Shown here piece after piece: positions 8,030 to 63,945 of a stretch of 64,000 nucleotides of DNA; the stretch's first letter is position 1; every line of letters starts with the position of its first letter. Below the pieces are notes generated by a model that saw nothing but the letters and a program-made list of their open reading frames with translations, was not told where the DNA came from and searched no databases. The position numbers and the translations under genes are program-made. The stretch comes from an uncultured Desulfobulbaceae bacterium (GTDB lineage: Bacteria > Desulfobacterota > Desulfobulbia > Desulfobulbales > CALZHT01), in the NCBI GenBank assembly GCA_945787445.1, contig CALZHT010000013.1:54079-118078 (forward strand), given 5' to 3'.

Positions 8030-9595
8030 GTGTACAATCGAGCTGATCTTTCTGATGAAGACCTGGCCCGGCTGCTGCCCCACACCATGGGTACGCAGCA
8101 TCCGGACAATGTGTCGAGCGTCCCATTCGGCACAAGCCCCAGGGTTGACCGCAACCTTGAAGAAGAGGAAGTGCTGTACAATGTTTCGGTGCTTGGTCTC
8201 AAGGAGGTGATGATAGATTACGAGCGCAAACATGGGCAGTGCACCCCCCTGTGGGATTGGCTGCACAAGTGCCCCGCCTGCCTTGAGGAGAAAATAATCG
8301 GCCGGGACTTTCACGTCACTCCCAGAATTCCCAATCCGGACCAGGAACGGGACGACCCCTACTTCTGGCAGAGCCTGGGTATCTTCATCAGCGATCTGCT
8401 GGTCATGCATCGGATGAGCCTTGAGGGACAGGCCTTTTCGGAATTCATCGTACCACAGACAAGCAGCGGGGCCATGGTGGCCAGAATCGAGCGCGACATT
8501 CAGGAGCGGTTTGCTCTTGAGAAGAAGCAATATCAGCATTACGGAGACGGCTCCCGATTCCCCTTTGACCGGGAGTTTTTTGTGCAGGGCATTCCTTTGA
8601 TTGAGACGGTTGAGGAATTACTTGCCCCGGAGCGCATCTGGGATGAGCTCATCCATACCCGAAAAGAACTCACCGGCAAGCAAACCCATATCCAGCGGAG
8701 TTTTATCGCTCGCAGCGACCCAGCCCTGACCGCCGGAATGGTGCCGGCCCTGTTGGCCGCATCGGTGGCACTTCACAAGGGACGCCAGTATGAAGCCGAC
8801 ACCGGCATCAGGATTCCGCAAATCGTGGGGATCGGTTCCGCCCCTTATCGAGGTGGTCTATTGCCGGAGCCTTCGAGTATAGAAGCGGTGGTGGCCACCT
8901 ATCCGGGAGCCATGACCCTGACCGTGCAGTCGGCGTTCCGTTATGATCATCCGGAGGACCAGGTTATCAAGACAATCGGAACTCTAGATGCCCATATCGC
9001 CAAAGGGTGGCTTGACCGGGCTCGGATCGGTCCTGGGCCGGGTCTGGATGAAGTCAAAGAGATTGGCCTGGTGATCAGCAAATTCAAGGAGCGATATGAA
9101 GAAGGCTACCGTCAGCTTCTGCCTTTTCTGGCAAGGGTTGCAAGCCAGGTGCCCAGCCACCGCGAGCGCTATGAAAATGTGGAAATCGCCGGGGAGGCCC
9201 GTCTGGTAGGAGGGCTGCCGGCTGTACGGGCCATCAAGTTTGCCGCATCCTGTTACAGTATTGGCCTGCCGCCAGGCATTATCGGGGTTGGCGCTTTTCG
9301 TGGCCTGACCAAGGCACATAAAGAGCTTATGGCAGCCATCTGCCCAATGATTGACTACTGGATTCGTCAAGAGCTTCGCTGGCTAAACATTGATACCCTG
9401 AAGGCATTAGAACCTCTTGCGGATGCCCGCACGGTCAAGGAAGACCTTGAAGTAGCAGAGGATTGGGTTGGGATCATCGAGCCGCATCAACATCATGCAG
9501 AACTCACTGCCGAGATAGCGGCACTCTGTGAGAGGGGTGCCGAGTTCACTCCGCAGATTATGAAGGCTGCCAAACTACGGGGTTTTTTAGGCTGA
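8030..9595 (+). CDS. archaeal-type phosphoenolpyruvate carboxylase (PepcA family)
   Basis: Motifs MGTQHPDN, EVMIDYE, VTPRIPN, IARSDPA, GSAPYRGG, TVQSAFRYDH and the C-terminal KLRGFLG match the archaeal-type PEPC family. Start set to GTG 8030 behind GGAGAGG. The upstream 148 codons of the track ORF overlap the divergent promoter region. Confidence 0.85.
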   Translation: MYNRADLSDEDLARLLPHTMGTQHPDNVSSVPFGTSPRVDRNLEEEEVLYNVSVLGLKEVMIDYERKHGQCTPLWDWLHKCPACLEEKIIGRDFHVTPRIPNPDQERDDPYFWQSLGIFISDLLVMHRMSLEGQAFSEFIVPQTSSGAMVARIERDIQERFALEKKQYQHYGDGSRFPFDREFFVQGIPLIETVEELLAPERIWDELIHTRKELTGKQTHIQRSFIARSDPALTAGMVPALLAASVALHKGRQYEADTGIRIPQIVGIGSAPYRGGLLPEPSSIEAVVATYPGAMTLTVQSAFRYDHPEDQVIKTIGTLDAHIAKGWLDRARIGPGPGLDEVKEIGLVISKFKERYEEGYRQLLPFLARVASQVPSHRERYENVEIAGEARLVGGLPAVRAIKFAASCYSIGLPPGIIGVGAFRGLTKAHKELMAAICPMIDYWIRQELRWLNIDTLKALEPLADARTVKEDLEVAEDWVGIIEPHQHHAELTAEIAALCERGAEFTPQIMKAAKLRGFLG

Positions 9596-9624
9596 TTCCT
9601 CGCGGTTTACTGCGGGGTAGTTCA

Positions 9625-11277
9625 TTACACCGGGCGTGGTCCTACCTCCATGAGATTCATTGCTTCCTTGTTGCCTTTATACGCAGCTTCAAATTTTTCC
9701 TGGAAGCTTTTTGCCAGTCTGTTTGCCGCTTGCCGGTAAGCCGCGACATTGTCCCAAACCTCCCACGGTTTAAGGATATCCTGGGATGACAATCCTATGC
9801 ACTCTGTTATCATGTCAACACCGAACTGCTCATGGGTCTGGTGCCTGGCGTGATTAAGGTCTCCATCCAAGGCCGCGGCTATCATGGCTCTGCTGTCCTT
9901 GATTGCAATCCGTGATCCAACCCCATAGCCTCCGCCTGACCAGCCGGTATTTACCAAATACACCTGGGCGCCAAATTGTTCTAATTTTTTTTCCAATAGT
10001 TGGGCATATTCAAACAAATCCCTCGGCATAAAAGGGAGACCATAGCAGGCGGAAAAAAATGGTTGGGGCTCGGTTACGCCGACTTCGGTTCCGGCCAGTT
10101 TCGAGGTGTATCCCATTAAAAAGTGGTACATGGCCTGTTTGGAACTGAGCCTTGAAATCGGCGGCAATGTTCCGGTGGCGTCTGCCGATAAAAAGAAAAT
10201 CGTTTTCGGATGCTTGGCCGTGCCGGTTTCGCTCGGATTCGGTAAACTTTTTAAGGGGTAAGATCCTCTGGTGTTTTCCGTAATATTGCCGTCATCATAG
10301 TTGAATCTTCCTTTCCGCATGACAATGTTTTCCGCCAGGGCGCCAAACTTCTTCATGGCATTGTAAATATCAGGTTCGGCATTTTTATCCAGCTTGATAA
10401 GCTTTGCATAGCAGCCCCCTTCCATGGCAAATAAGCCATTCGGGCCCCAGGCAATTTCATCATCGCCAAGCATTGCCCGGTCCGGGTCCGAAGATAAGGT
10501 AGTTTTCCCGGTGCCGGAGAGCCCGAAAAACACCGCAGATTCTCTATCATTGCCAATGTTGGCGCCGCAATGCATGGGGAATATATCCATTGTGGGGTAA
10601 ATATAATTTAAGAATGTAAAGGCGCCTTTTTTGGGTTCCCCGCAATAGTTCATGCCGGCGGCCAGAATCCTTCGCTTTTTAAAATCAAGAACGACGGCAC
10701 CGTCCTGTTTCAGGCCGTATTTTTCCGGGTCGATTTTGAGTTCGGGCAATACTATTGCCGTTACGGCGTCCTGGGCAATCTGGCCCTCTGCGATCATATC
10801 CAAAGGCGGCAGGTCGCGGAATTGATTTATGGCAAATAATGCCCTGGATGCATGGGATGTTATGAATTGAAAGGGAAAGGCATTCATTAGATCAGAACCC
10901 AGCATGCGGTTTGCCACGAAAATTTCCCCTGTTTTATTGATATATTTGATCATTTCATTATAAATCTTGTTCGCCGTGCTTCTGGAGATTGGCTGGTTCA
11001 GCTTCTTGTTGGAAAAGTCAACGCCGGGTGCATCGTCACAGATATATCGTGCCGCAGGAGTTCTGCCAGTATGCCTCTGTTTGCCATACTGATCATCAAC
11101 CCTTGTATTGATAACCAGGGTGCCTTTCCTGCTCAGGACGCCTTCTCCTCTACGTACCGCTTCCGTAACCAGTTGCGAAAAGTGAAGATTATCAATACCT
11201 TCTGTTTCACCTAAATTAGAGGTTACCGTATCTTTTATGCCCAGTCTGCCCAGATTAAGCAATTCGTCGACAGCCAT
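9625..11277 (-). CDS. pckA: phosphoenolpyruvate carboxykinase (ATP)
   Basis: 550 aa with the kinase-1a motif GLSGTGKTTLS and PckA-like context (FFGLSGTGKTTLSSDP, NTGWSGG). Confidence 0.9.
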   Translation of the reverse strand: MAVDELLNLGRLGIKDTVTSNLGETEGIDNLHFSQLVTEAVRRGEGVLSRKGTLVINTRVDDQYGKQRHTGRTPAARYICDDAPGVDFSNKKLNQPISRSTANKIYNEMIKYINKTGEIFVANRMLGSDLMNAFPFQFITSHASRALFAINQFRDLPPLDMIAEGQIAQDAVTAIVLPELKIDPEKYGLKQDGAVVLDFKKRRILAAGMNYCGEPKKGAFTFLNYIYPTMDIFPMHCGANIGNDRESAVFFGLSGTGKTTLSSDPDRAMLGDDEIAWGPNGLFAMEGGCYAKLIKLDKNAEPDIYNAMKKFGALAENIVMRKGRFNYDDGNITENTRGSYPLKSLPNPSETGTAKHPKTIFFLSADATGTLPPISRLSSKQAMYHFLMGYTSKLAGTEVGVTEPQPFFSACYGLPFMPRDLFEYAQLLEKKLEQFGAQVYLVNTGWSGGGYGVGSRIAIKDSRAMIAAALDGDLNHARHQTHEQFGVDMITECIGLSSQDILKPWEVWDNVAAYRQAANRLAKSFQEKFEAAYKGNKEAMNLMEVGPRPV

Positions 11278-12036: not shown

Positions 12037-12177
12037 ATTCAGATCTCCTGAACTCGAGGATTTACGATGATACCAGCGTTGATAATCTCCGTACGGAAGA
12101 GTGCCTAAAGTTTGAAGTGCCTAAAGTGCCTAAAGTTTAAGAATTTATCTAATCAGAAAAGTACCATAACTTTAGGC
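12037..12177 (+). repeat. family B hairpin element, copy B1 (right arm truncated)
   Basis: 5' module ATTCAGATCTCCTGAACTCGAGGATTTACGATGATA..TTGATAAT, then a left arm of AGTGCCTAAAGT units, a loop, and a right arm that stops at AACTTTAGGC. Confidence 0.85.
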
Positions 12178-12651
12178 GGTGTATTCGAATTCATCTGCGA
12201 GTTTGGCTTCACCATGAACCACTTTGGTCTTAACCGTGTATGACCCTGCGGCCTTGAAATCCACATCGGCCCCGTATCCGCCGGTCATTGCCATGGTCAT
12301 GGCCTTTTGTTTGTTTCCGTCGGATGAAGTGACCAGGTAGCCCACTTTGGCATCCTTGATTTTCTCGCCCTTGGGCCCTTCAATGTAAAGCATGAGATGG
12401 TGAGATTTCATGTTCTCCATGGCGTCGGCGGCCATGGTGTGTTTTTGATCCATAGTGGCCATCTTTTCCTTCATGTCGATCAGGTGGTAGGCAAAGGTGA
12501 AGCCGTCAACCTTGGTGGTCCTGATGAGTTTTCCCATATGGGCGGAATGGTCCATTTTATGGCCCTGATGTCCTTCGGACATTGCTACTGCTTGGGCGGC
12601 AATGATAAGCCCGCACATCATCAGTAAAGAAAGAAATTTTGTGATTTTCAT
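12172..12651 (-). CDS. periplasmic His/Met-rich putative metal-binding protein
   Basis: Signal peptide MKITKFLSLLMMCGLIIAAQAVA, then HQGHKMDHSAHMG and several M/H clusters. Strong RBS AAGGAG before ATG 12651. Last gene of the efflux operon. Confidence 0.7.
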   Translation of the reverse strand: MKITKFLSLLMMCGLIIAAQAVAMSEGHQGHKMDHSAHMGKLIRTTKVDGFTFAYHLIDMKEKMATMDQKHTMAADAMENMKSHHLMLYIEGPKGEKIKDAKVGYLVTSSDGNKQKAMTMAMTGGYGADVDFKAAGSYTVKTKVVHGEAKLADEFEYTA

Positions 12652-12741: not shown

Positions 12742-13080
12742 TTACAAGGCATCGGTGCTTTCGCATTTGTTGCGTATTTTCATGAGCCGGTTGACGTTTG
12801 ACACAACGATGATGCCGTCGCCGCTGAAACCGGTGCAGGAGGCCTCCCGGATGATGTCCACCAGCCGCAAGTCGTCACGGTCGCTGCAGATCACCTCCAG
12901 TTTCACCATCTTTGTGACCCTGCGGCCGAACTCCATGTTTATCTTGGCATCGCCGTTGTCAACGTGTTTGCCGACGGCCAGAACATGGTCGACCGTGGCA
13001 TGGATAGCCCCGGCATCCTGCAAGGCGTCAAGGGTTTCCCGCGCCTTGTCGGCCCGAATGATGGCTTTAATCTCCTTCAT
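12742..13080 (-). CDS. P-II (GlnB-like) family protein associated with metal efflux
   Basis: 112 aa with a P-II-like pattern: MKEIKAIIR...TV..V...G...KLEV.C.D...TG..GDG.I.V. Its start overlaps the cusA-like stop by 14 nt. Confidence 0.7.
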   Translation of the reverse strand: MKEIKAIIRADKARETLDALQDAGAIHATVDHVLAVGKHVDNGDAKINMEFGRRVTKMVKLEVICSDRDDLRLVDIIREASCTGFSGDGIIVVSNVNRLMKIRNKCESTDAL

Positions 13081-16000
13081 AATGCACCTCTTCTTCTGGT
13101 AAGGTTTTACGCGTAAAGATCTGCCGCAGTTCCCAACGTTTCCAGATATCGTATACCGCAGGGATAATGATCAGGGTAAGGATGGTTGAGGAAAGAAGCC
13201 CGCCGACCATGGGCGCGGCGATGCGTTTCATGACCTGGGACCCTGTCTCGGTGCCTATCATGACAGGAAGCAGACCGATCAGGGTGGTGGCCACGGTCAT
13301 CAGCTTGGGCCGTACCCTATCCGCGGCACCCTCGATGATGGAAGCGTGCAGGTCCTCATGGGATGTCATTTGCGCATGTCTCTTGCGGCGGTTAAAGGAT
13401 TCGTCAAGATAGACCAGCATCACGACGCCAGTCTCGGCCGCAAGGCCGGCCAGGGCAATGAAGCCCACCACCACGGCCACCGAAAGGTTATAGTTCAGAA
13501 TATACAAAAGCCAGACGCCGCCCACCAGGGCAAAGGGCAGGCTGGCCATGACAATCAAGGCCTCGATCATGTTCTGGAAATGGATAAAGAGCAGGACAAA
13601 GATAACGGCAATGGTCACCGGAATGATAATATTTAAAGTTTTACGCGCTTTTTCCATGTATTCGTATTGCCCGGACCAGATAATGGAATACCCGGAAGGA
13701 AAAGCAATTTCATTTTCAACGATTTCCTTGGCCGTTTTTACGTAAGACCCCACATCGACGCCCTTGAGATCCACGTAGATCCAAGCGGTCTGCCGGGAAT
13801 TTTCGCTTTTGATTGCCGGCGGGCCTTTGACCAGGTTGATGTCGGCAAATTGGGCCAGGGGTATCTGGGCCCCGGTGGGAGTGGAAACCAGGACGCGCTT
13901 CACCTGCTCGATGTCATCCCGCAGTTCCCGGGTATACCGTAGACTCACCGGATAGCGTTCAAGGCCTTCCACGGTATAGGTGACGTTCATACCGCCAATG
14001 GCCGTGGAAATGACATCCTGCACATCGCCTACTGTGAGTCCGTAACGGGCTATCTGATCGCGGCGAATGGTAAAATCCAGGAAATTACCGCCCGTGACCC
14101 GTTCGGAATAGGCGGATAAGGTGCCTGGAATATCGCGGACCAACGCTTCGATTTTCGATCCCAAATCCGCTAGCACTTCAAGATCAGGACCCATAAGCTT
14201 GATGCCCACCGGGGTTTTTATGCCGGTTGACAGCATGTCGATCCTGGTCTTGATCGGCATGGTCCAAGCATTGGTCAGCCCTGGAAACTGGATGGCACTA
14301 TTAAGATCGTCAGCTAACTCGTCGATGGTTATATAACGCTCTTCCGGCCAGATGAAGGTGAACGGCATTTTGATCCAGCCGGGCCAGCCGGAAAAGAAGC
14401 GCTCTATTTTCCTTTTGCGCCACTGGTCAAGGATCTTGCCCTGTTTCTTTTCAGGCAGGATAAGGTTGAGCGGGCCTTTAAGCCATTCGGGCCAGCCGGA
14501 AAAGAAGCGGTCCACGGTTATGGTTTCATAGGTGACTTTCGGTTTCAGAGTGATGGTGGTTTCAATCATGGAAAGGGGCGCCGGGTCCGTGGCGGTCTCG
14601 GCCCTGCCGATCTTGCCCAGGGTATGGTCCACTTCCGGAAAACTCTGGATGATTTTATCGGTCTGCTGCAGGATTTCCTTGGCCTTGGTGATGGACAGGC
14701 CGGGACCAGCTGGCGATGATGACAAAGGTAGCGATGAGCATTGTAATTTTGGGCCATGTGAGCACCTGGGTAATAACAGGCAGGTAGGTGCGTACAAAGA
14801 ATTTGCTTAACGGATTGCGCTTTTCAGCGATCAGCCGCTGCGGGACCAGGAAGATCGCGGCAAAAAGGGAGACTGCCAATGCTGCAAGTAATGACCAGCC
14901 CGGCAACTCAAGCCCGGCAAGGCCGCCGATGATGACCAGCAAAGGCGGCGCCCCGATTGCCGCTGCCCAGGAAATGGTTTTTTTCTTTCGGCTCATTGCC
15001 GGGGGCAGAGCATGTTCGCGGATAAAGAAGGTCATGAGCACCGGGATGATGGTGACGGCCAGGATGGAGGATGCCGCCATGGCAAAGGTCTTGGTATAGG
15101 CCAGGGGTTTGAAGAGGCGGCCGGATTGTTCCTGCAGGGCAAACACCGGCAGGAACGATATGGTGATGATCAGCAGGCTGTAAAACAGGGCCGGTCCCAC
15201 CTCCTTGGAGGCATCGACGATGATCTGCAGGTGGGTCTTGCTCCCCTTTTCTTTTTCCAGATGTTTGTGGGCGTTTTCCACCAGCACTACCGAGGCGTCC
15301 ACCATGACGCCGATGGCAATGGCAATGCCGCCTAGGCTCATGATAGTGGCATTTATGCCCAGAAAATACATGCCAAGAAACGACATGAGGATCCCTACCG
15401 GCAGGGTGAAGATGGCCACAAAGGCTGAGCGGAAATGGAGCAGGAATACCACGCAGATAAGGGCCACCACGATCATTTCTTCAAGGAGTTTTTCCTTCAG
15501 GGTGTCAACGGCGCGTAGGATCAGGTTGGAGCGGTCATAGCCGGTTTTGATCACCACCCCTTCCGGCAGCCCTTTTTCCAGCTCTTTGAGCTTTTCCTTG
15601 ACGTTTTTGATGATCTCCAGGCCGTTTTCGCCGTAACGCATCACCACAATGCCGCCCACGGTTTCGCCCTGGCCGTTCCATTCCAGTATGCCGCGCCGCA
15701 ATTCGGGCCCCACGTGGATATGGGCAATATTTTTCAGCAGGATCGGGGTCCCCATCCGGTCGACGCCCACGGCTATGATTTCCAGATCTTGCATGGAGCG
15801 GATATAGCCCAACCCCCGCACCATGAATTCAGTCTCCCCCATTTCAATGAGCTTGCCGCCCACATCCCGGTTGGAGCGCTGGATGGCCTGCTTGATTTTG
15901 CCGATGGAAAGGTTGTAGGCCAGGAGCTTGTTGGGATCGACCTCCACCTGGTACTGTTTGACGTAGCCGCCGATGGAGGCGACCTCGGAAACCCCGGGGA

Positions 16001-16511
16001 CCGCGGTGAGTTCATAGCGTAGATACCAGTCCTGGATGGACCTGAGCTGCTGCAAATCATGGCGGTCAGTGGTATCCTGCAGCACGTATTCATACACCCA
16101 GCCCACGCCGGTGGCGTCCGGGCCCAGGCTCGGGGTGACACCCTCGGGCAGCCTGCCGGCCACGAAGTTCAGGTACTCCAGGACGCGGGAACGGGCCCAG
16201 TACAGATCGGTGCCGTCTTCAAAAATGATATAAACAAAGGAGACGCCGAAAAAGGAGTAGCCCCGCACTACTTTGGCAAAAGGTACGGAGAGCATGGCCG
16301 TGGTGAGCGGATAGGTCACCTGGTCCTCAACCACCTGGGGGGCCTGGCCGGGATAATCGGTCTGGATGATAACCTGCACGTCCGAAAGATCCGGGATGGC
16401 GTCCAGCGGCGTGTTGAGCATGGCGAGAATGCCGCCCAGGATCATAAAGATAGTGGCCAGGATGACGATGAACCGGTTATTTATGGACCATTCGATGATT
16501 TTTTCTATCAT
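13067..16511 (-). pseudogene. cusA: CusA/CzcA-family heavy-metal RND pump, disrupted by internal deletion plus frameshift
   Basis: The N-terminal ORF 14655-16511 (MIEKIIEWSINNRF...DVQVIIQTDYPGQAPQVVEDQVTYPLTT) and C-terminal ORF 13067-14797 are in different frames. They meet near 14700-14715. The conserved segment between ...WPK.T.L.. and PG(I/L)S..EA...LQ.TD is missing. Confidence 0.8.
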
Positions 16512-21173: not shown

Positions 21174-21348
21174 TTCAGATTTCCTGAATTCGAGGATTTT
21201 ACGATGATATGAGCATTGATAATGCCCGTAAGAGTGCCTAAAATTCGAAGTGCCTTAAGTGCCTAAAGTTAATGTACTTGTTTTGTCAGATATTCCTTTA
21301 ACTTTAGGCACTTCGAACTTTAGTGCACTTTAGGCACTTAACTCGGTA
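21173..21348 (+). repeat. family B hairpin element, copy B2 (most complete)
   Basis: Same 5' module as B1. Left arm is GAGTGCCTAAAATTCGAAGTGCCTTAAGTGCCTAAAGTTA. Right arm is TAACTTTAGGCACTTCGAACTTTAGTGCACTTTAGGCACT. Confidence 0.9.
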
Positions 21349-25190: not shown

Positions 25191-25210
25191 TGTCTTTGTG
25201 GTAATAGTCT

Positions 25211-25457
25211 CAGTTAAGGTAAGTACCCCTTCCTTTCAATTAGGCAGCTTTAGGTCGTATTTGTTATTTTCGTGCTCGTGCGCGTAATCGTGTAATCGAT
25301 TTTCCTTGTATTCATAATCAAACACAGAATGCTTCCTTTTCAATTACGATTACGATTACGAGCACGAAAACGTTACAAACGGATCTTTTTGACCCGTATC
25401 CGGACTTTCAGTCCTTTGCATTCAAAATCCATCGTCTTCAGACGGAGGCTGTTGGGT
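25211..25457 (+). repeat. family A structured element, copy A1
   Basis: Aligns over its full length with A2-A4. It carries 3 CGATTA-type units and 1 AGCACG unit in the right arm. Confidence 0.9.
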
Positions 25458-27043: not shown

Positions 27044-27050
27044 ATTGTCG

Positions 27051-27315
27051 CAGTTAAGGTTAATACCCCCCTGCCTTTCATGCAGGCAGCTATAGCTCGT
27101 ATTTGTTGTTTTCGTGCTCGTGCGCGTAATCGTAATCGATTTTCCTTGTATTCATAATCAAACACGTAATGCTTCCTTTTCGATTACGGTTACGGTTACG
27201 GTTACGATTACGATTACGAGCACGAGCACGATACAAACGGATCTATTTGAGCCGTACCGGACTTTCCAGTCCTTTTTATTCAAAACCCACCGTCTTTAGA
27301 CGGAGGTTGTTGAGT
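27051..27315 (+). repeat. family A structured element, copy A2
   Basis: Full-length copy with 6 CG(A/G)TTA units and 2 AGCACG units. Its last 36 nt overlap the 3' end of the ykgJ-like ORF. Confidence 0.9.
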
Positions 27316-27861: not shown

Positions 27862-28018
27862 AATAAAGACATATTGATCAGCCTGAAGAAGAGAAGCAGG
27901 ATGTGCTTTTCAGCAAGCCGCGGAAAGTTTCATTCTTAACATGGAATTCATTTCGGTTCAAATTATGTTTGACAATCCCTTTTCAAGCTTGCCAAGATTT
28001 TAGTGAGGTCAAAATATG

Positions 28019-28261
28019 TGGCAGCCGGCTTAAGCTCGTATTTGTTATATTCGTGCTCGTGCGCGTAATCGTAATCGATTTTCCTTGTATTCATAATCAA
28101 ACACGTAATGTTTCCTTTTCGATTACGATTACGATTACGATTACGATTACGATTACGATTGCGAGCACGAGCACGATACATACGGGCCTATTTGACCTGT
28201 ATCCGGACTTTCTAGTCCTTTTTATTCAAAACCCACTGTCTTTAGACGGAGGTTGTTGAGT
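28019..28261 (+). repeat. family A structured element, copy A3 (5' hairpin module missing)
   Basis: Aligns from GGCAGCCGGCTTAAGCTCGTATTTG to GGAGGTTGTTGAGT. It has 7 CGATTA units plus 2 AGCACG units. Confidence 0.9.
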
Positions 28262-32236: not shown

Positions 32237-32290
32237 GGTATTTTTTCCTCTAATATTTTTAAGGTGCTTTCCCCTGGTTTTTATTCGTCT

Positions 32291-32524
32291 CAGGTAAGGG
32301 TAATACCCCTGCCTTTCAGGCAGGCAGCTTTAGCTCGTATTTGTTATATTCGTGTTCGTAATCGTAATCGATTTTCCTTGTATTCATAATCAAACACGTA
32401 ATGCTTCCTTTGCGATTAGGAGCACGAGCACGAGCACGATACAAACGGGTCTATTTGATCCGTATCCGGACTTTCAGTCCTTTTCATTTAAAAACCCACC
32501 GTCTTTTGACGGAGGTTGTTGAGT
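32291..32524 (+). repeat. family A structured element, copy A4
   Basis: Full alignment with A1-A3. It has 1 CGATTA unit and 3 AGCACG units. Confidence 0.9.
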
Positions 32525-33098: not shown

Positions 33099-33141
33099 TT
33101 CTTTTTATAATTGTCAAACCCAAAAACTCAGATTTGATTAA

Positions 33142-33304
33142 CTCGTAAAAGTCACAGGATGGCTAAGCAGCTATGCGTAGACTGCGAAAAGTTCGATATA
33201 CAAGGAGTAGAGGCGTCGAGGGCGCGGAGGCATACATCAGGTATGTCGAGCACCTGAGAACCCGCTACAACGCAGTAGATCGGATTTTTTGCGACGCCAT
33301 CAAA
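33142..33304 (+). repeat. divergent relative of the family F shell element (H)
   Basis: 5' CTCGTAAAAGTCACAGGATGGCTAAGC compares with F CGCAAAAAGTCGGGAAAGCGGTTAACGC. 3' GATCGGATTTTTTGCGACGCCATCAAA compares with F AATCGTATTTTTTACGATTTCATCAAT. The internal segment is different. Confidence 0.5.
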
Positions 33305-35410: not shown

Positions 35411-35623
35411 TCCCTCTCAACATGTTTAAGGAATTTTTTCAGCTACTCCTGAAGTCATTGACCCTAATACCTTTACAATTAAAAGGTATTTGGGATATGT
35501 TCAACAATTAATAAAAAAACTTTGCGTGCTTTGCACCCTTATGGGCATAAACGACTTTGCGTGAGAAAAGTGGTCTTCGCGATTTTATCAAGATTTGTTG
35601 AGGCATAGTAAAAAGTAACAAAA

Positions 35624-35673
35624 GCAGAAGGCAGAAGGCACAAAGGCAGAAGGCAGAAGGCAGAAGGCAGAAG
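35624..35673 (+). repeat. heptamer array GCAGAAG x7 (family C, copy C1)
   Basis: Read directly. One variant unit is GCACAAA. Confidence 0.9.
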
Positions 35674-35792
35674 TAAAAAGGCAGACGGCGCATATTAAGC
35701 GGGGCTGCGGGGTAGACCAATAATCTGTGAGTGTCCGCCAATATCCATCTGCCGGGCTTCTTAAGGCCTCACCAAGGCTCAAGGCGGAAAGA

Positions 35793-41973: not shown

Positions 41974-42260
41974 TTCAAAATTTCAAATTTTTCAAACCGC
42001 GTGCGTTAAAAAAACAACGGATTAGAAGGTTACGAATGGGCATGCCGATTTAGTTTCTAATTCGACATAAGCACGGTTTTATAACATAACCAGTAAACTA
42101 ATAATTAGTACCGATACGGATAAATTTTTTCATAAAATCATGTAATAATAATAACTTACGGTATATAGCTAAATATTATGAAACAAGTATATGGTTATCC
42201 TATATGAGAACGGAAAAAAAAGTAAAGCCCGGTATTGGATGCGAAGTAAATTTTTTAATT

Positions 42261-42346
42261 AGAAGGCAGAAGGCAGAAGGCAGAAGGCAGAAGGCAGAAG
42301 GCAGAAGGCAGAAGGCAGAAGGCAGAAGGCAGAAGGCAGAAGGCAG
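42261..42346 (+). repeat. heptamer array AGAAGGC x12 (family C, copy C2)
   Basis: 12 perfect units read directly. It lies about 290 bp upstream of the transglutaminase operon start. Confidence 0.95.
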
Positions 42347-42409
42347 TGGCGGAAACTTGCCAAAGGATCTATGGCAACATTTTTTTATTCAGGTGAATAG
42401 TGATGATCC

Positions 42410-42598
42410 CGCAAAAAGTCGGGAAAGCGGTTAACGCGCCATGTAATTTCAACTGGTTACAAGGTTATGCATCGGTGAACTGGCAATAGCTTTGCTAGTA
42501 AGCATGGCTGAACTTATCGCCCGTTTCATCGCAAGGAACCAAAGTGGTCAACGCGTCCGCGTAGCAGACAAATCGTATTTTTTACGATTTCATCAATA
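42410..42598 (+). repeat. family F element, long form (shell plus core), copy F1
   Basis: CGCAAAAAGTCGGGAAAGCGGTTAACGCGCCATGTAATTTCAACT...AAATCGTATTTTTTACGATTTCATCAATA. The core is at 42474-42571. Confidence 0.9.
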
Positions 42599-42772
42599 GT
42601 ATTCACAGACGTTATCAAACCAATCGCTGATTTGGTCACCATAGAGGTCGACCGGTGACTTTTGTTCGCACTCCGTGCAAACTACCCGGACATTGCTTCA
42701 GCGGCCCTTGAGGTAAGCCACGCCGCCGCAGTAAACACAGATAAGTTGCGGTTCGAAATCCTTGCTATTCAT
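42593..42772 (-). pseudogene. Lar-like zinc-ribbon ORF with in-frame TGA (pseudogene or selenoprotein candidate)
   Basis: Own translation: MNSKDFEPQLICVYCGGVAYLKGR-TGA-SNVRVVCTECEQKSPVDLYGDQISDWFDNVCEYY. Two CxxC pairs lie on either side of the TGA (42698-42700). Confidence 0.35.
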
Positions 42773-44281: not shown

Positions 44282-45343
44282 ATGGCTGAAGACAAATCTT
44301 CGCGTTATTCGGAATCCGGTGTTGATATTGATAAAGGCAACGAGTTTGTTGACAGGATTAAATCCATGGTATCCTCCACCTTCAGAGGTGGGGTGCTCAC
44401 CGGGATTGGCGGCTTCGGCGGTTTGTATGCCCTTGGCGGCGGACGCTATAAGGACCCGGTCCTGGTCTCTTCTACCGATGGTGTTGGAACAAAGCTCAAA
44501 ATTGCAGTCATGTGCAACAAACACGATACCATCGGTATTGATCTGGTTGCCATGTGTGTGAACGATATTGTGGTGTGTGGGGCGAAGCCTTTGTTTTTTT
44601 TGGATTATTTTGCAGTGGGTAGTCTTGATGTGGACGTGGCTGCCGATGTGGTAAAAGGTATTGCCGAAGGTTGTAAAATTTCGAAATGCTCCCTTATAGG
44701 CGGTGAAACTGCCGAGATGCCGGGACATTATATGCCAGGCGACTATGACCTTGCCGGTTTTGTAGTAGGTATTGCCGAGCGGAACAAGCTGATTGACGGC
44801 TCTGATATTAAAGTAGGGGATGTGATTATCGGTCTGGCTTCAAGTGGATTACACAGCAATGGCTACTCACTGGTGAGGAAGATATGTTTCGAGGAACTGG
44901 GCCTTACTGTTGATGATCAGGTGCAAGAGCTTGGTGGTACCCTGGGGGAGGAATTACTGAAACCAACCCGCATTTATGCAGACTCCTTGATGACCCTCAA
45001 GAGGCACTTCAAAATAAGCGGTCTTGTCCATATCACCGGAGGCGGCATCATTGACAATATTCCCCGCATTCTCCCCCAGGAATGTAAGGCAGTCATAAAC
45101 GGCAAGGGATGGAAAGTGCAGCCGATCTTTAGGTTCCTTCAGGAAAAGGGTAACATTGCAGGGGAGGAGATGTGCCGAACCTTCAATAACGGCATCGGCA
45201 TGGTGCTTATCATTGACGCGAGCCTGGTTGAGGACGTAACCCAGCAGCTCAGGGCTCTTGGCGAGATCCCATATGTTATTGGCGAGATTGCCAAGAACAA
45301 GGGCAAGGAAGGGCCGCTGGTTGAAATATACACGGCGCCATAA
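44282..45343 (+). CDS. purM: phosphoribosylformylglycinamidine cyclo-ligase (AIR synthetase)
   Basis: 353 aa: YSESGVDIDKGNEFV, SSTDGVGTKLKIA, DLVAMCVNDI, GGETAEMPG. Confidence 0.95.
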   Translation: MAEDKSSRYSESGVDIDKGNEFVDRIKSMVSSTFRGGVLTGIGGFGGLYALGGGRYKDPVLVSSTDGVGTKLKIAVMCNKHDTIGIDLVAMCVNDIVVCGAKPLFFLDYFAVGSLDVDVAADVVKGIAEGCKISKCSLIGGETAEMPGHYMPGDYDLAGFVVGIAERNKLIDGSDIKVGDVIIGLASSGLHSNGYSLVRKICFEELGLTVDDQVQELGGTLGEELLKPTRIYADSLMTLKRHFKISGLVHITGGGIIDNIPRILPQECKAVINGKGWKVQPIFRFLQEKGNIAGEEMCRTFNNGIGMVLIIDASLVEDVTQQLRALGEIPYVIGEIAKNKGKEGPLVEIYTAP

Positions 45344-45454
45344 GTCCGATGCATCCCATCATGCTTCGTCACTTGCTGCGGTGCCTGCTCACAGCGCTAC
45401 CAGGCTGCTCCGCCGGCTCCTCGCTCGTTCCTCGCCTGGCTGGGCGCCTCGAAA
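45342..45454 (+). repeat. family G element, copy G1
   Basis: AAGTCCGATGCATCCCATCATGCTTCGTCACTTGCTGCGGTGCCTGC... is shared with G2. It is bracketed by a perfect 15-bp inverted repeat (45329-45343 / 45455-45469). Confidence 0.8.
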
Positions 45455-48532: not shown

Positions 48533-50128
48533 ATGCGGAAAGCAGCTCATGATACCGGAAAAATTGCCAGATCAGCAGGCACAGTCAGCTTTGCAGTGAT
48601 GTGCAGCAGAGTGCTGGGGCTGGTTCGGGAACAGGCCTTTGCTATTCTTTTCGGTGCAGGTTTTGCCTTTGATGCCTTTGTAGTAGCCTTCCGAATCCCC
48701 AATCTTCTTCGCGACCTGTTTGGCGAAGGAGCCTTGAGTGCTGCATTTGTTGCGGTGTTTACCGACTATGACACGAACAAGGGTGAGGAGGCAACTTGGC
48801 ATCTTGCCAATAACGTAATTGCTTTTTTTCTGATCCTGTTAAGCGCCATAACCATCATTGGAATTCTTTGTGCAGATCCGATTGTCCGGGTTATGGCGGC
48901 ACGGGAAGGGTTTGAGAATATTCCCAACAAAGTTGAGCTTGCCCATCTGCTCACAGTAATTATGTTCCCCTTTCTGATTCTGGTGTCACTCTCATCCGTG
49001 GTAATGGGCATTCTTAATACCAAAGGCCGCTTTTTTGTGCCGGCCATGGCCTCAAGCTTTTTTAATATCGGTTCCATAGTTGGTGGGGTAAGTCTGGCTC
49101 TGGTCATGCGTTATTATGAACAGCCCGCCATAGTGGGCATGGCGATTGGCACCCTCATCGGTGGCGTTCTCCAGCTCGTGTGGCAATTGCCCTCCCTGCG
49201 CCGTATCGGTTTCCGGTACAGGTTTATGCTTGAACTTACGGATCCAGGCCTGAGAAGGATACTTCGTTTGATGGTGCCTGCTCTAATCGGGCTGGCCCCC
49301 CTGCAGATCAATGTACTGGTCAATACCTATTTCGCTTCTTCCTTGGAACAGGGCAGTCTTTCCTGGCTCAATTATGCTTTTCGACTATTCTGGCTACCGG
49401 TGGGCCTTTTTGGAGTAGCCATGTCCATAGCTTCCATGCCTGTGATATCCAGGTATGCAGCTTTGAAGGATTTACACAATCTTAAGGCAACATACACTTC
49501 ATCTCAGGTGATGGCCTTCTGTCTGACCATTCCCGCATCTGTTGGTTTGGTTCTGCTGGCTGAGCCAATCATCAGAGTTATTTTCCAATACGGTAAATTT
49601 GATGCGTATACCACGGCAAAAACCGCCGAGGCCCTTTGCTATTATGCTTTGGGCCTGTTTGCCTATTCTTCAGTCAAGATTATAGTGCCGGTCTTTTATG
49701 CTCTGGATGATACGAAATATCCGGTAATGGGCAGTTTTCTGGCCATGGGCAGCAATATTCTCATCATCAAAATGACTATTGACTTTTTCCAGCACAAGGC
49801 TTTGGCCCTCTCTATTTCAGGGGCAATGACCCTCAATTTTTTGTTTCTGGCAACAGTCCTGTATCGCAAACTGGAAGGGTATTCCCTGGGTTATATTTGT
49901 GCCGGTTTCGGTAAGGTAATTTTTTCATCAAGTATCATGGGATTGATCGTGGTGTGGATATTGAAAATGACTGTTGACTGGCAAACTGCAGGGGTAATTA
50001 TGGATATGGCTCGTCTTTTGCTCTGTATTCTTATCGGAGCTTCAGTGTATGGCCTGGCCCTTTATCTGCTGAAATTGGATGAATTGAAGGTGATAACCGA
50101 TAAAGTTTTTGCCAGAGTGCGCAGTTGA
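48533..50128 (+). CDS. murJ: lipid II flippase MurJ
   Basis: SRVLGLVREQAFAILFGAG...AFVVAFRIPNLLR..FGEGALSAAFV. Multi-TM MOP/MVF family. Start moved to ATG 48533. Confidence 0.9.
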   Translation: MRKAAHDTGKIARSAGTVSFAVMCSRVLGLVREQAFAILFGAGFAFDAFVVAFRIPNLLRDLFGEGALSAAFVAVFTDYDTNKGEEATWHLANNVIAFFLILLSAITIIGILCADPIVRVMAAREGFENIPNKVELAHLLTVIMFPFLILVSLSSVVMGILNTKGRFFVPAMASSFFNIGSIVGGVSLALVMRYYEQPAIVGMAIGTLIGGVLQLVWQLPSLRRIGFRYRFMLELTDPGLRRILRLMVPALIGLAPLQINVLVNTYFASSLEQGSLSWLNYAFRLFWLPVGLFGVAMSIASMPVISRYAALKDLHNLKATYTSSQVMAFCLTIPASVGLVLLAEPIIRVIFQYGKFDAYTTAKTAEALCYYALGLFAYSSVKIIVPVFYALDDTKYPVMGSFLAMGSNILIIKMTIDFFQHKALALSISGAMTLNFLFLATVLYRKLEGYSLGYICAGFGKVIFSSSIMGLIVVWILKMTVDWQTAGVIMDMARLLLCILIGASVYGLALYLLKLDELKVITDKVFARVRS

Positions 50129-50129
50129 T

Positions 50130-50318
50130 TATTGATGAAATCGTAAATAATACGAGTTGTCTGCTACGCGGACGCGTTAACCGCCTTGATTTCTTGCTAT
50201 GAAACGGGCGATAAGGACAGCCATGCTTACTTGCAAAGCTATTGCCAGTTCATCGATGTATTACGTTTCAACTAGTTGAAATTACATGGCACGTTAACCG
50301 CTTTCCCGGCTTTTTGCG
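50130..50318 (-). repeat. family F element, long form, copy F2
   Basis: Its reverse complement aligns with F1 over the full length. The core is at 50157-50255. It fills the gap between the convergent murJ and rsmE. Confidence 0.9.
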
Positions 50319-50330
50319 AGTGTGTGTCAT

Positions 50331-51080
50331 TTATTGATAGTCAAACTGTTGTCTCAGTAAGCTAATCTGGGAAAGCAAGGCCGGTACTGCTGTATCTACT
50401 CTAAGAATGCGGGGGCCCAGGGTGAAATCACTAAAGCCCTGTTCTTTGAATTTCTGCAATTCAAAATCCACCCAGCCGCCTTCAGGGCCGATGGCAAGAA
50501 GTACTCGCCCGGTTGCAGGATTTGGGGTGATTTGGAAGATGAATTTTGAAGCATTGGGATGGGCTAGAAGTTTACAAGAGTACTCTTTGATAATTTTCGC
50601 AAGCATATCCTCAACAAAGGGCCTGAATTTTTTGTGGATGGACACTTCCGGTACCCTGGTGTCCATGGCCTGTTCAAGACCATGAAGGAACTGGTTTTGT
50701 ATGGTATTGTCCTTGAACAGTGAGGCACTGAAAAAACTTTTTTCAACTCGGTTGGCGTTTATCAGAAAAAGCTTGCCAACGCCTAAAGCGGCAATTTGGG
50801 AGAGAACGCGTTTGAGCATAATGGGCCGGGGCAGGGCCAAAATGAGATCCAGGGGAGGGGCAGCAGGCATCGGGCCATTGGCATTTATCTGTAATCTTAC
50901 TATTGGAGGCACGGCCTCAATTATGCGGCCTATGCCGGTAGGACCGTTGATGATGCCCACGCGCACCGTGTCTCCCGGCGATAACCGCAGGATTTTGATG
51001 ATGTGTTCACTGCGCCTGTCCTGTAGGGTTACGGTGTTTGATTTTGAGATTTCGTCTTTTGCGAGTAAGATCAAATTCAT
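50331..51080 (-). CDS. rsmE: 16S rRNA (uracil1498-N3)-methyltransferase
   Basis: 249 aa. RsmE-like N-terminal PUA region (HIIKILRLSPGD) and C-terminal GPEGGW...E motif. Confidence 0.85.
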   Translation of the reverse strand: MNLILLAKDEISKSNTVTLQDRRSEHIIKILRLSPGDTVRVGIINGPTGIGRIIEAVPPIVRLQINANGPMPAAPPLDLILALPRPIMLKRVLSQIAALGVGKLFLINANRVEKSFFSASLFKDNTIQNQFLHGLEQAMDTRVPEVSIHKKFRPFVEDMLAKIIKEYSCKLLAHPNASKFIFQITPNPATGRVLLAIGPEGGWVDFELQKFKEQGFSDFTLGPRILRVDTAVPALLSQISLLRQQFDYQ

Positions 51081-51154: not shown

Positions 51155-51276
51155 GCATTGATAATAAAGTGCCTAAAGTTATGGTACTTTTCTTATAAGA
51201 CTATTTTCAGTGCCCCCTTGAGGGGTATAAATCCTTTAACTTTAGGCACTTTAAACTTTAGCTCACTTTAGGCACT
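51155..51276 (+). repeat. family B hairpin element, copy B3 (5' module truncated)
   Basis: GCATTGATAATAAAGTGCCTAAAGTT, then a loop, then TAACTTTAGGCACTTTAAACTTTAGCTCACTTTAGGCACT. Confidence 0.85.
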
Positions 51277-51367
51277 TCTTTTAGGCTGCAATTTTTTAGC
51301 ATCTACACGTAACAATAGCTGCCGAGTCCTGGTTATCTGAACTAAGAATGTCAAAGTTGGATTTTCC

Positions 51368-53708: not shown

Positions 53709-53745
53709 AGTGCATGTGGGCCGAGGAATTTGTATAAACTACAAA

Positions 53746-53844
53746 TTGTCTGCAACGCAGATGCGTTGACCACCTAGATCCCTTGCGATGATCCAGGCGA
53801 TAAGTCCAGCCGAAATTTTTTGAAGAACTATTGCCAATTCATCG
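53746..53844 (-). repeat. family F core alone, copy F5
   Basis: Aligns with the core segment of F2 (TTGTCTGC.ACGC...GCGTT.ACC...GGCGATAAG...CTATTGCCA.TTCATCG). The shell termini are absent. Confidence 0.75.
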
Positions 53845-54025
53845 TTGTTCTGTCTTGTAATCTAATGAATGAACCAGGAAAGAAGAATCAAGCGAACAAT
53901 GAACTACCCCACAAAGAGGTTGCGGGATAGTTCATATACTTTTTGAACACGATCAGCGAGCACATTCCCCGCAGGTTACGCTTCGCGTGCGCAAGCGGCC
54001 GGGGGGAGCTTCAAATCAATACCTT

Positions 54026-54352
54026 TTAGTTGACAACAAATGTTGCCGGATATCGCGTTTCATTGCCGTCGGTATCATAGGCAGACAATTTGAAAGTCTT
54101 GGGCTGGACCTCATTATCAATACCACATTCCATTTTTAAGGCATGAATGTCTTCTGTGGCGCAAATAAGGCTTCCCCCTGCCTGGTATAGCCGCAAACCT
54201 TTTATTTCATCATCCGTATTTTTGTCATATTCCCATTTCACTGTGACTCTCGATGTGTCCGGATTTACGTTGAAGGCAGCTTGCTTTCCTTCACCTACAA
54301 GGCAAGCGGTTAAAAGCAATGATATTGCCAGAAGAATGAATACCTGTTTCAT
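54026..54352 (-). CDS. small lipoprotein, 108 aa
   Basis: MKQVFILLAISLLLTAC lipobox, followed by a beta-rich (Ig/FN3-like) sequence. Confidence 0.6.
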   Translation of the reverse strand: MKQVFILLAISLLLTACLVGEGKQAAFNVNPDTSRVTVKWEYDKNTDDEIKGLRLYQAGGSLICATEDIHALKMECGIDNEVQPKTFKLSAYDTDGNETRYPATFVVN

Positions 54353-54506: not shown

Positions 54507-54999
54507 GTCTACAATACAATTTAACCTTACCATTTCGGCAGCTCCTCCATCCTGAAGTTCAGAACAGGTTGCTTTGCGTCATCCGGTTACCCGGATTTTG
54601 CCTTTTCGATGGTGTCGCATTTTGCTTGAAATGAATACCCAGCAAATAATTCTTAAAATTTTAGCAGGTTTCATGTCTACAGAAAAGAAAAAAATAGATA
54701 AATTATATACCTTGTAAATGTTATGGAAAAAAATGAACAAGAGCCTTGGAATGGATTGTAATAATGGCGGAAAGAATACGAGTGTGTTTTTTTTACCACA
54801 ATTTGTAGCGCAGAATATGCGTAATTTGCATTTGCAGCACAACTTTCTAAGCACTTGAATTTTCAAAGTATTTTTTATGCTTAAAGACAAAATAACCTTC
54901 TTGGAAGAAGGTGGCCCAGTTTTTGCTTACTAAGATAAAATCATTGTTGTGTCAGTTTGTCTACAATCAATCATTAGTGCCGTAAAAGGTTTATACGAT

Positions 55000-58332: not shown

Positions 58333-58365
58333 GATTGTCCTCCGTATGAAATTTCTATGTTTTTG

Positions 58366-58455
58366 AAAAATCGTAAAAATAAGATTTTATCGATATCTTA
58401 TGCTGTAACTAGTTGAAATTACATGGCGCGTTAACCGCTTTTCCGGCTTTTTACG
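58366..58455 (-). repeat. family F element, short form (shell only), copy F3
   Basis: Reverse complement CGTAAAAAGCCGGAAAAGCGGTTAACGCGCCATGTAATTTCAACTAGTT...ATCGATAAAATCTTATTTTTACGATTTTT. It lies between the DUF948-like and ytxH genes. Confidence 0.85.
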
Positions 58456-58461
58456 AGACCA

Positions 58462-58851
58462 TCATGTTTTGGTTTTGCCAGATTTGGTGAAAAAATGGGT
58501 AAAGGCTTTTACTCCAGCATAAAAACCGCCAACTTGGGTTGCAAGGGGTGTAACTGTATTTTTCAGAATATGAGTAGTAATGAGAAGAGTATCTGATGAT
58601 TGTTTTACCGTCTCGATTATCTGATCAGTTTTGTTCACTTTATCATTAAGTGAGGATGTCAGTTTTTGCAGTTCGATTGAAGTTTGCGAAAGCGATTTGA
58701 GAAGAGGCCCAATCTCTTGATTTATAGTATCGAAGAATGCTTCCGCCTTTCGGGCGCTGCGGCTTATCTGAAGAATGGCAGGAGCAAGAACCCCAACCAA
58801 AACAGCAAGGCTGATTATGACGATAACCAGAAAAAAATCAAAAAGCGTCAC
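58462..58851 (-). CDS. DUF948-like membrane-anchored coiled-coil protein
   Basis: N-terminal TM (FFLVIVIISLAVLVGVLAPAIL), then a helical region. Start tentatively GTG 58851 behind AAGGTG; the track start is TTG 58905. Confidence 0.6.
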   Translation of the reverse strand: MTLFDFFLVIVIISLAVLVGVLAPAILQISRSARKAEAFFDTINQEIGPLLKSLSQTSIELQKLTSSLNDKVNKTDQIIETVKQSSDTLLITTHILKNTVTPLATQVGGFYAGVKAFTHFFTKSGKTKT

Positions 58852-59793: not shown

Positions 59794-59972
59794 GAATTTT
59801 TACCGAAGCCATTGATAAACATTACAATTTTCCATCATGCTGCTGCAACGCTCAAATAAAAAAAAGATTAATGCAGCGGCTGCTCTTGTGGATTTTGCTA
59901 TGAATTGCACCTTGATTTGTAGTATATTTTTAAATGGTTATAGTGAGATTGCATTATACAATATTGACGATA

Positions 59973-60069
59973 CGGCAAAAAGTCGGGAAAGCGGCTAACG
60001 TGCCATGTAATTCAACTTTTTTCAACGTTATACATCGATAAAATCGTATTTTTTACGATTTCATCAATA
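59973..60069 (+). repeat. family F element, short form, copy F4
   Basis: CGGCAAAAAGTCGGGAAAGCGGCTAACGTGCCATGTAATTCAACT...ATCGATAAAATCGTATTTTTTACGATTTCATCAATA. It lacks the ~100-nt core. Confidence 0.88.
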
Positions 60070-63794: not shown

Positions 63795-63945
63795 ACATAA
63801 GTCCGATGCATCCCATGATGCTTCGCCACTTGCTGCGGTGCCTGCCTATCACGCCGCATAGCGGGACTTAGCCGACTCCTCACTTGTTCTTTATGTTTTT
63901 AGGGTGCTCGCTGGGCTGGCCGCTTCGAACTTCAGAACTCCTGTC
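63795..63945 (+). repeat. family G element, copy G2
   Basis: ATAAGTCCGATGCATCCCATGATGCTTCGCCACTTGCTGCGGTGCCTGC, then CTCCTCACTTGTTC and GCTCGCTGGGCTGGCCGCTTCGAA modules shared with G1. Confidence 0.8.

Follow-up and report, generated by a model that had tools for sequence, protein, structure and literature searches.

Short and long versions of a probable MITE family in a Desulfobulbaceae chromosome

Introduction

In a stretch of 64,000 nt from an uncultured Desulfobulbaceae bacterium (hereafter the window), a small intergenic repeat, family F, occurs in two forms, one of which looks like the other with a second sequence in its interior. A reading made from the letters alone (the sequence-only reading) had separated the repeat into a shell and a core and had proposed that a small mobile sequence has time and again entered a specific site of a second one. 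Does the core indeed move into the shell, or are the two forms versions of a single element? We have examined the ends of the repeat, its insertion sites, the divergence of its parts and its relatives in other genomes. Family F is most probably a MITE family that exists in short and long versions, the two being size variants of one element.

Results

Copies of family F and their ends

Family F is a genuine repeat: a 25-nt shell motif matches four times in the window and in none of 100 shuffled sequences, confirming the four shell copies that had been listed, and a motif from the 3' part matches three times, again with no match in the shuffles. The long copies c1 and c2, originally read at 42410-42598 (+) and 50130-50318 (-), form an inverted pair that a repeat finder aligned without gaps over 189 nt at 89% identity. 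The short copies c3 and c4 both lack the same ~93 nt and have the junction ATCGATAAAATC in common, which bears out the claim of a composite form with a precise common boundary. The two size classes, short (~102 nt) and long (~196 nt), differ by one internal segment of ~93 nt, located just inside the right-end hairpin of the long form. Within 27 kb lie four intact F copies, two long and two short, together with one relic (c5) and one copy of a sister family (c6) (Table 1).

To find the ends, all left ends were aligned with the reverse complements of all right ends. Every F copy starts with 5'-TGA and finishes with TCA-3', so that the shell begins 9 nt further left and ends 3 nt further in than had been read. 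The terminal inverted repeats are ~19 nt long and imperfect, with the consensus TGATGGTCTCGTAAAAAGT, and each is followed by a short hairpin with an A5/T5 loop. A terminal motif, TGAY[GAT]NNNYCGYAAAA, occurs six times in the window compared with ~0.05 expected, and all six sites are at element ends and pair up in inverted orientation: c1 and c6 have the motif at each end, c3 at its left end and c4 at its right. In a position-weight-matrix (PWM) scan of the window, scores of 20-30 bits fell at the ends of c1, c4 and c6, the right end of c2 and the left end of c3, with nothing comparable away from element ends. The inverted repeats are imperfect at the left end of c2 and the right end of c3.

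Table 1. Coordinates of family F, its relatives and other features. Positions refer to the window unless a locus (L number) is given.
Feature	Position	Strand	Description
c1, long F copy (probable MITE)	42401..42595	+	195 nt; ends TGATGATCCCGCAAAAAGT and (reverse complement) TGATGAAATCGTAAAAAAT; PWM 26.9 and 26.7 bits
c1 target-site duplication	left 42397..42400, right 42596-42599		ATAG
c2, long F copy	50133..50329	-	197 nt; core 50159-50251; flank ATAA with a 1-nt offset
c3, short F copy	58364..58464	-	101 nt; AAAACA on both flanks
c4, short F copy	59965..60066	+	102 nt; target duplication ATAT/ATAT
c5, best read as a decayed long-form relic	53731..53868	-	core 53748-53840, 75% identity to c1/c2
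c6, sister family (probable MITE)	33135..33302	+	168 nt; terminal repeats TGATTAACTCGTAAAAGTC and TGATGGCGTCGCAAAAAAT; flanks GATT/AATT
Possible degenerate right-end fragment	35563..35592	+	AAAGTGGTCTTCGCGATTTTATCAAG; 10.8-14 bits, within the shuffle range; weak
Core (in c1)	42477..42569	+	~93 nt, with ~3 nt of ambiguity at the junction; part of the long form, missing from the short one
25-nt shell motif	42424 (+), 50280 (-), 58417 (-), 59988 (+)		AAAGCGGYTAACGYGCCATGTAATT; exact, four occurrences
Element in L012	4167-4307		flanks ATGT / ATGT
Element in L012	6030-6278		flanks AGCA / AGCA
Element in L012	10862-11110		flanks AACA / AACA; adjacent to PHP-domain gene
Element in L012	14519-14661		flanks AATA / AATA
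Element in L033	12580-12747		flanks CTCT / CTCT
Element in L020	10855-11011		flanks AGAC / AGAT; adjacent to PHP-domain gene
Element in L039	10847		adjacent to PHP-domain gene
Element in L036	9941-9996		adjacent to PHP-domain gene
Element in L019	~9500-9683		adjacent to PHP-domain gene
c6-like element in L010	13223-13353		
GGCAGAA tandem arrays	42249-42351; 35629-35703		heptamer unit
c-di-GMP-I riboswitch	54534-54612	-	61 bits, E 2e-9
108-aa ORF	54026-54352		no Pfam match
Four-copy intergenic repeat family	25202-25457; 27044-27315; 27983-28260; 32282-32523		contains short tandem runs of CGATTA / CGTGCT units, as well as inverted repeats
AcrB/CusA-type efflux pump	13067-16511	-	overlapping ORFs 13067-14797 and 14655-16511
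66-nt imperfect direct repeat	14339-14512		within the split pump
50-nt direct repeat	45339-45388; 63796-63845		96% identity, 18.5 kb apart
Extra 50 nt in the same-species MAG	964/965		L082:122-171
Extra 71 nt in the same-species MAG	12177		L082:11385-11455
Family of the 71-nt piece	12094-12185; 21227-21339; 51163-51277		AACTTTAGGCACTT...

Target duplications and insertion sites

The F copies are bordered by target duplications of ~4 bp at A-rich sites. Across 11 elements (c1, c2, c3, c4 and c6 plus six from three other Desulfobulbales genomes), the 4-bp duplication is perfect in seven, and 39 of the 44 flank bases match; in a permutation test of the flanks, none of 100,000 permutations reached the observed match (P<1e-5). 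A TA target duplication of the IS630-like kind, our initial reading of the flanks, was dropped once the TGA/TCA ends gave 4-bp repeats.

The window is ordinary chromosome, and the F copies are intergenic, in both orientations, amid housekeeping genes. Among the genes around the copies are those for a MurJ-like flippase, an RsmE-like methyltransferase, LpxK, KdtA, LpxC, NAD kinase, a PHP-domain phosphoesterase, DUF948 and YtxH proteins, a PilT-like ATPase, EF-G, ComEC and tRNA-His. Copy c2 fits exactly between the convergent stop codons of the murJ-like gene (TGA, 50126-50128) and the rsmE-like gene (TAA, 50331-50333). With c2 and one copy of the duplication removed, the sequence reads ...CAA TAA TCA ACT..., in which the rsmE-like TAA abuts the complement of the murJ-like TGA. 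Likewise, the DUF948 gene now stops at the terminal TGA of c3 (58464-58462) with its protein unchanged, and removal of c3 gives ...AAA ACA TAG, the original TAG stop of this gene. That removing c2 and c3 restores intact gene ends may be taken as indirect evidence of insertion. The TGA/TCA termini allow an element to lie exactly at stop codons without altering proteins.

Given that the elements are small (101-197 nt, where MITEs stay below ~600 bp) and non-coding, with terminal inverted repeats, target duplications and multiple dispersed copies, we infer that they are transposon insertions of the MITE kind. The sequence-only reading was right in seeing mobile, non-coding DNA here, as the inverted ends, the 4-bp duplications and the lack of a coding signal all indicate.

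Copy c4 lies between a divergent pair, the PHP-domain gene and the PilT-like ATPase gene, and both c3 and c4 are 32-45 nt upstream of start codons. Such positions would suit a family of cis-regulatory leaders or structured non-coding RNAs in which one domain is optional, as would the finding that some hairpins fold better than shuffled sequences (z = -2.5 to -5.5) and that a hairpin carries compensatory changes. However, RNAs or leaders would not account for the inverted ends and the target duplications, the copies show no consistent orientation or placement with respect to genes (two of the four face gene 3' ends), family F has no Rfam match even at E<=1, and c3 and c4 have no promoter or terminator consensus inside them. 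We consider this explanation highly implausible. A candidate sigma-54 promoter on the reverse strand of the shell (TGGCACG-N4-CCGC) was rejected on its inconsistent orientation towards genes and on the absence of the motif from the sister family.

The PHP-domain gene has elements near it in other genomes as well. In the window, c4 is 172 nt upstream of this gene; in five other genomes, superfamily elements lie <=~350 nt from the ends of PHP-domain genes, which amounts to 5 of 14 sites where ~0.6 would be expected (binomial P~3e-4). These elements belong to different sub-families, so the insertions look independent, and the neighbourhood of the PHP gene may act as a hot spot for insertion or as a safe harbour. 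The element in L036 is a mini-element of 56 nt, barely more than two terminal repeats, whose last bases overlap the PHP start codon.

Core, shell and the relic

A hairpin (CGATGAA..GGC..TAG / CTTAT..GCC..TTCATCG) takes up the first ~60 nt of the core; its arms are conserved and its loop varies. The core tail carries AAAGTGGTCAACGCG, which is a copy of the 5' shell motif AAAGCGGTTAACGCG; for the motif common to shell and core tail, AAAGYGGTYAACGCG, P<0.01 in both c1 and c2. Reading both strands of the core by eye, we saw no IHF consensus (WATCAANNNNTTR). An open frame in the core (ELAIAL...RVRVAD) continues into the right end of the element. A protein-coding core was rejected: substitutions number 10, 9 and 7 by codon position, with no third-position bias, the c2 copy of the frame contains a stop codon, and neither a word-indexed nor a profile search found a true protein relative. 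The sole match in the representative library, to a 3108-aa repetitive protein in 17 stretches, was taken as spurious.

Were the core a separate small mobile element that had repeatedly entered one shell site, as the nested proposal holds, its identical position in c1 and c2 would be expected. It would also fit that a palindrome of 11 of 12 bp (GATAAAATCGTA ttttt TACGATTTCATC) runs uninterrupted across the site in the short form, where the core of the long form interrupts it, and that the shell SNPs do not unite the two long copies. Yet the core has no inverted repeats of its own and no target duplication at its junctions, and the TIR-like score of 6-11 bits at its 5' edge comes mostly from the shell-derived CGATGAA. 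Between c1 and c2, core (10%) and shell (~12%) have diverged equally, with 87-90% identity in both, which is what a single composite founder, later copied, would give. In addition, the core was found nowhere else in the window or in the fetched related loci.

A free core had nonetheless been reported, at 53746-53844, where we place c5. This copy retains shell sequence on both sides: it remains homologous to the long form throughout the 3' hairpin, in which two pairs differ by compensatory changes (from AAATCGTA/TACGATTT to AATTTGTA/TACAAATT), and the 24 nt 5' of its core match the shell in register at 13 positions, including TTACAAG (P~0.007). Farther upstream, we found nothing recognisable, no left end above 9 bits and no target duplication, and for want of such an end (<9 bits) and duplication we rejected c5 as a complete independent element. 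It is best read, from this alignment, as a decayed long copy. Taken with the equal divergence and the absence of ends on the core, the loss of its one free copy leaves the nested proposal very unlikely; the mobile unit would instead be the whole element, with its terminal inverted repeats and 4-bp duplications.

Exchange between copies

Two shell SNPs and the presence of the core occur in all four combinations among the four copies, which hints at recombination between copies or recurrent change. The module would move without transposition if related copies, which have the right-end hairpin and a CGATRAA motif in common, underwent homology-driven recombination or gene conversion, and the occurrence of AAAGYGGTYAACGCG in both shell and core tail is consistent with such an exchange. 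A fragmentary same-species MAG (GCA_945787035.1) is 99.8-99.97% identical to the window over ~31 kb. Within a 7-kb overlap (99.8% identical), 6 of the 11 differences fall inside c3 (58366-58428), and three of these six restore the consensus hairpin and right end in the MAG. The hairpin of the MAG allele is perfect and its right end intact, and the c3 allele of the window is decayed. This strain difference could be gene conversion, quasi-palindrome correction or an assembly artefact. On the other side, the copies number only four, both SNPs are transitions and may have arisen more than once, the strain differences might stem from mixing of repeats in a short-read MAG assembly, and c1 and c2 are equally diverged throughout. 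As the source of the two sizes, we judge exchange between copies to be unlikely.

Comparison of strains for empty sites, as had been suggested, yielded this one same-species MAG, and it has every copy. As a side observation, the MAG carries an extra 50 nt and an extra 71 nt relative to the window. The 71-nt piece belongs to another repeat family, with three further sites in the window (Table 1), and small repeats are evidently polymorphic between near-identical strains.

Relatives in other genomes

Searching 80 loci around PHP homologues with the terminal motif revealed inverted pairs in other Desulfobulbales genomes. One family, in L012, is unrelated to F and also has two forms, of 141-143 nt and 249 nt, which differ by one ~106-nt module that adjoins a terminal repeat and is bounded by ATGAC direct repeats.

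For the window copy c6, the sequence-only reading had described a divergent shell with a different insert at 33142-33304. The same terminal motif is present at both ends of c6, and its 3' 43 nt are 74% identical to c4, but the interior is unrelated to that of F, so that the relationship is through the ends only. The elements in L033 and L020, as well as L099, L100, L104 and L107 from a viral collection, are homologous to c6 from end to end. The c6-like interior has the motifs GATGGCTAAG and TTCGATATACAAGG, a central GGCGTAC...GTACGCC hairpin and CAACGC.GT.G, with compensatory changes in nine predicted pairs. By sequence comparison, F, a local family, shares its superfamily with the widespread sister family of which c6 is a member.

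We also observed that the c6-like interior, with its covarying central hairpin, is kept in genomes with protein identities of only ~45% as well as in contigs classed as viral, a degree of conservation unusual for a MITE interior. The c6-like family also includes an element in L010, and some of its members have two tandem left-end motifs.

Outside this species, nothing similar to the F interior was found in exact-pattern scans of genome, metagenome and viral contigs (the last scanned with the shell motif), in plasmid and phage BLAST searches, or with nhmmer profiles of shell and core run on the 80 related loci. The nearest relatives of the PHP protein are only ~50% identical, too distant for filled and empty sites to be compared.

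Search for a transposase

No transposase or recombinase was detected among the 40 window ORFs scanned, nor did the scanned window proteins show a Y1_Tnp domain. Across 1.2 Mb of related loci, none of the TIR pairs 0.7-1.8 kb apart was IS-like, and neither the window nor these loci yielded a transposase or a cognate autonomous element with matching ends. The search for a cognate enzyme that the sequence-only reading had advised thus came back empty over the window and these loci, and its suggestion of an IS200/IS605 or RAYT mobiliser is contradicted by the terminal inverted repeats and target duplications.

Other features of the window

Several further features were noted (Table 1). The two GGCAGAA heptamer arrays lie ~50 nt from the left end of c1 and ~40 nt from the weak right-end-like fragment, respectively. 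A c-di-GMP-I riboswitch is upstream of a 108-aa ORF, and the c5 relic is ~160 nt downstream of this ORF. A separate intergenic repeat family has four copies. The AcrB/CusA-type efflux pump, which contains a 66-nt imperfect direct repeat, is split into two overlapping ORFs, perhaps through a frameshift or as a pseudogene. Finally, one copy of a 50-nt direct repeat lies immediately beyond an AIR-synthase-related gene, and the ComEC gene has the other at its 5' end.

Discussion

Origin of the two sizes

We favour the reading that the long and short forms are size variants of one MITE because c5 is not shell-free, the core is without ends of its own, core and shell are equally diverged, and the L012 family and the Correia elements provide precedents. 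The F copies would be DNA transposons of the non-autonomous kind, dependent on a transposase supplied in trans from another part of the genome; a DDE transposase would insert them by cut- or copy-and-paste and duplicate ~4 bp of A-rich target. The size difference most likely had a single origin, and it could have arisen in either direction, by an internal deletion or by the gain of a hairpin module, after which each size version would have multiplied by transposition. This origin is read from four intact F copies, and the palindrome across the short-form junction fits an intact short form with the core as an extra at least as well as it fits a deletion. An ancestral core, considered on the basis of homology to c6-like interiors, was rejected since the apparent matches were not significant (P 0.23-0.9).

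The dimorphism recurs in F and in L012 (143 vs 249 nt), and one may imagine a regular process behind it, in which a hairpin module would be gained or lost at the inner edge of the terminal hairpin through template switching during transposition or repair. In a related idea, the conserved and covarying interior of the c6-like family might form a structure required by its transposase. These ideas are quite improbable in our estimation; if true, either one would make for an unusual MITE with a functional interior.

Significance

What appeared to be a puzzle of an element within an element resolves into a transposon family whose exact ends, target duplication and consensus terminal repeat are defined. 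With the TIR consensus, these repeats can be masked or annotated in genomes and MAGs of Desulfobulbales, in which they may be one cause of fragmented assembly, and the TIR sequence (TGATGGNNTCGYAAAAAGT ... ACTTTTTRCGANNCCATCA) gives a concrete handle for finding the transposase. The dimorphism recurs in independent families; the findings as a whole leave the general understanding of MITEs unchanged. A full-text literature search found no description of MITEs in Desulfobulbales. Judging from its sequence, family F would belong to a MITE superfamily that extends across the order Desulfobulbales and is apparently undescribed. It is a new family, and apparently part of a new superfamily, of a very well-known kind of element, ordinary bacterial selfish DNA.

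Comparison with known elements

The F ends (5'-TG...CA-3') and a duplication within the 3-5-bp range are those of IS3-type elements, and together the TG..CA ends and 4-bp duplications suggest a DDE transposase of the IS3-like type as the mobiliser. The IS3 assignment of F is only a lead, since IS21 and IS481 likewise end in TG and are able to duplicate 4 bp. IS3-family target duplications are 3-5 bp, and 4 bp in the IS407 group (ISfinder family table); a 4-bp duplication is consistent with the IS407 and IS150 groups (ISfinder table). The inverted repeats of the IS3 family start with 5'-TG and finish with CA-3' (PMC6211511). F is like the IS3 family in these ends, but neither an orfA/orfB transposase nor a full-length element with F ends was found.

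REP/REPIN (RAYT) elements and the palindrome elements derived from IS200/IS605 are, like F, short, intergenic and hairpin-forming. However, they have no such terminal inverted repeats and no target duplications, whereas F has both; F is moreover AT-rich and is without a GTAG-type REP head.

The Correia/NEMIS elements of Neisseria resemble F more closely, as small non-coding intergenic MITEs with terminal inverted repeats and a target duplication that lie near gene ends. Correia elements occur in forms of ~107 and ~155 bp, the difference being one 50-bp internal segment (PMC2229807). Their likeness to F is in size dimorphism only, for there is no sequence similarity, and Correia elements duplicate TA whereas F duplicates ~4 bp. 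The extra Correia segment carries an IHF site, while that of F is ~93 nt long and adjoins one end. In F we found neither the TA duplication nor the 26-bp Correia repeat nor, on reading by eye, a long-form IHF site.

BOX elements are composed of boxA-boxB(n)-boxC modules, and this arrangement parallels the A-C, A-B-C and B-C forms of F. The two are not homologous: BOX varies in the number of tandem boxB modules and F in the presence or absence of one module, and their ends and duplication lengths differ. BOX is nevertheless, like F, an interspersed, non-coding, MITE-like repeat of varying length, which in Streptococcus pneumoniae ranges from 67 to 637 bp (PMC3184786).
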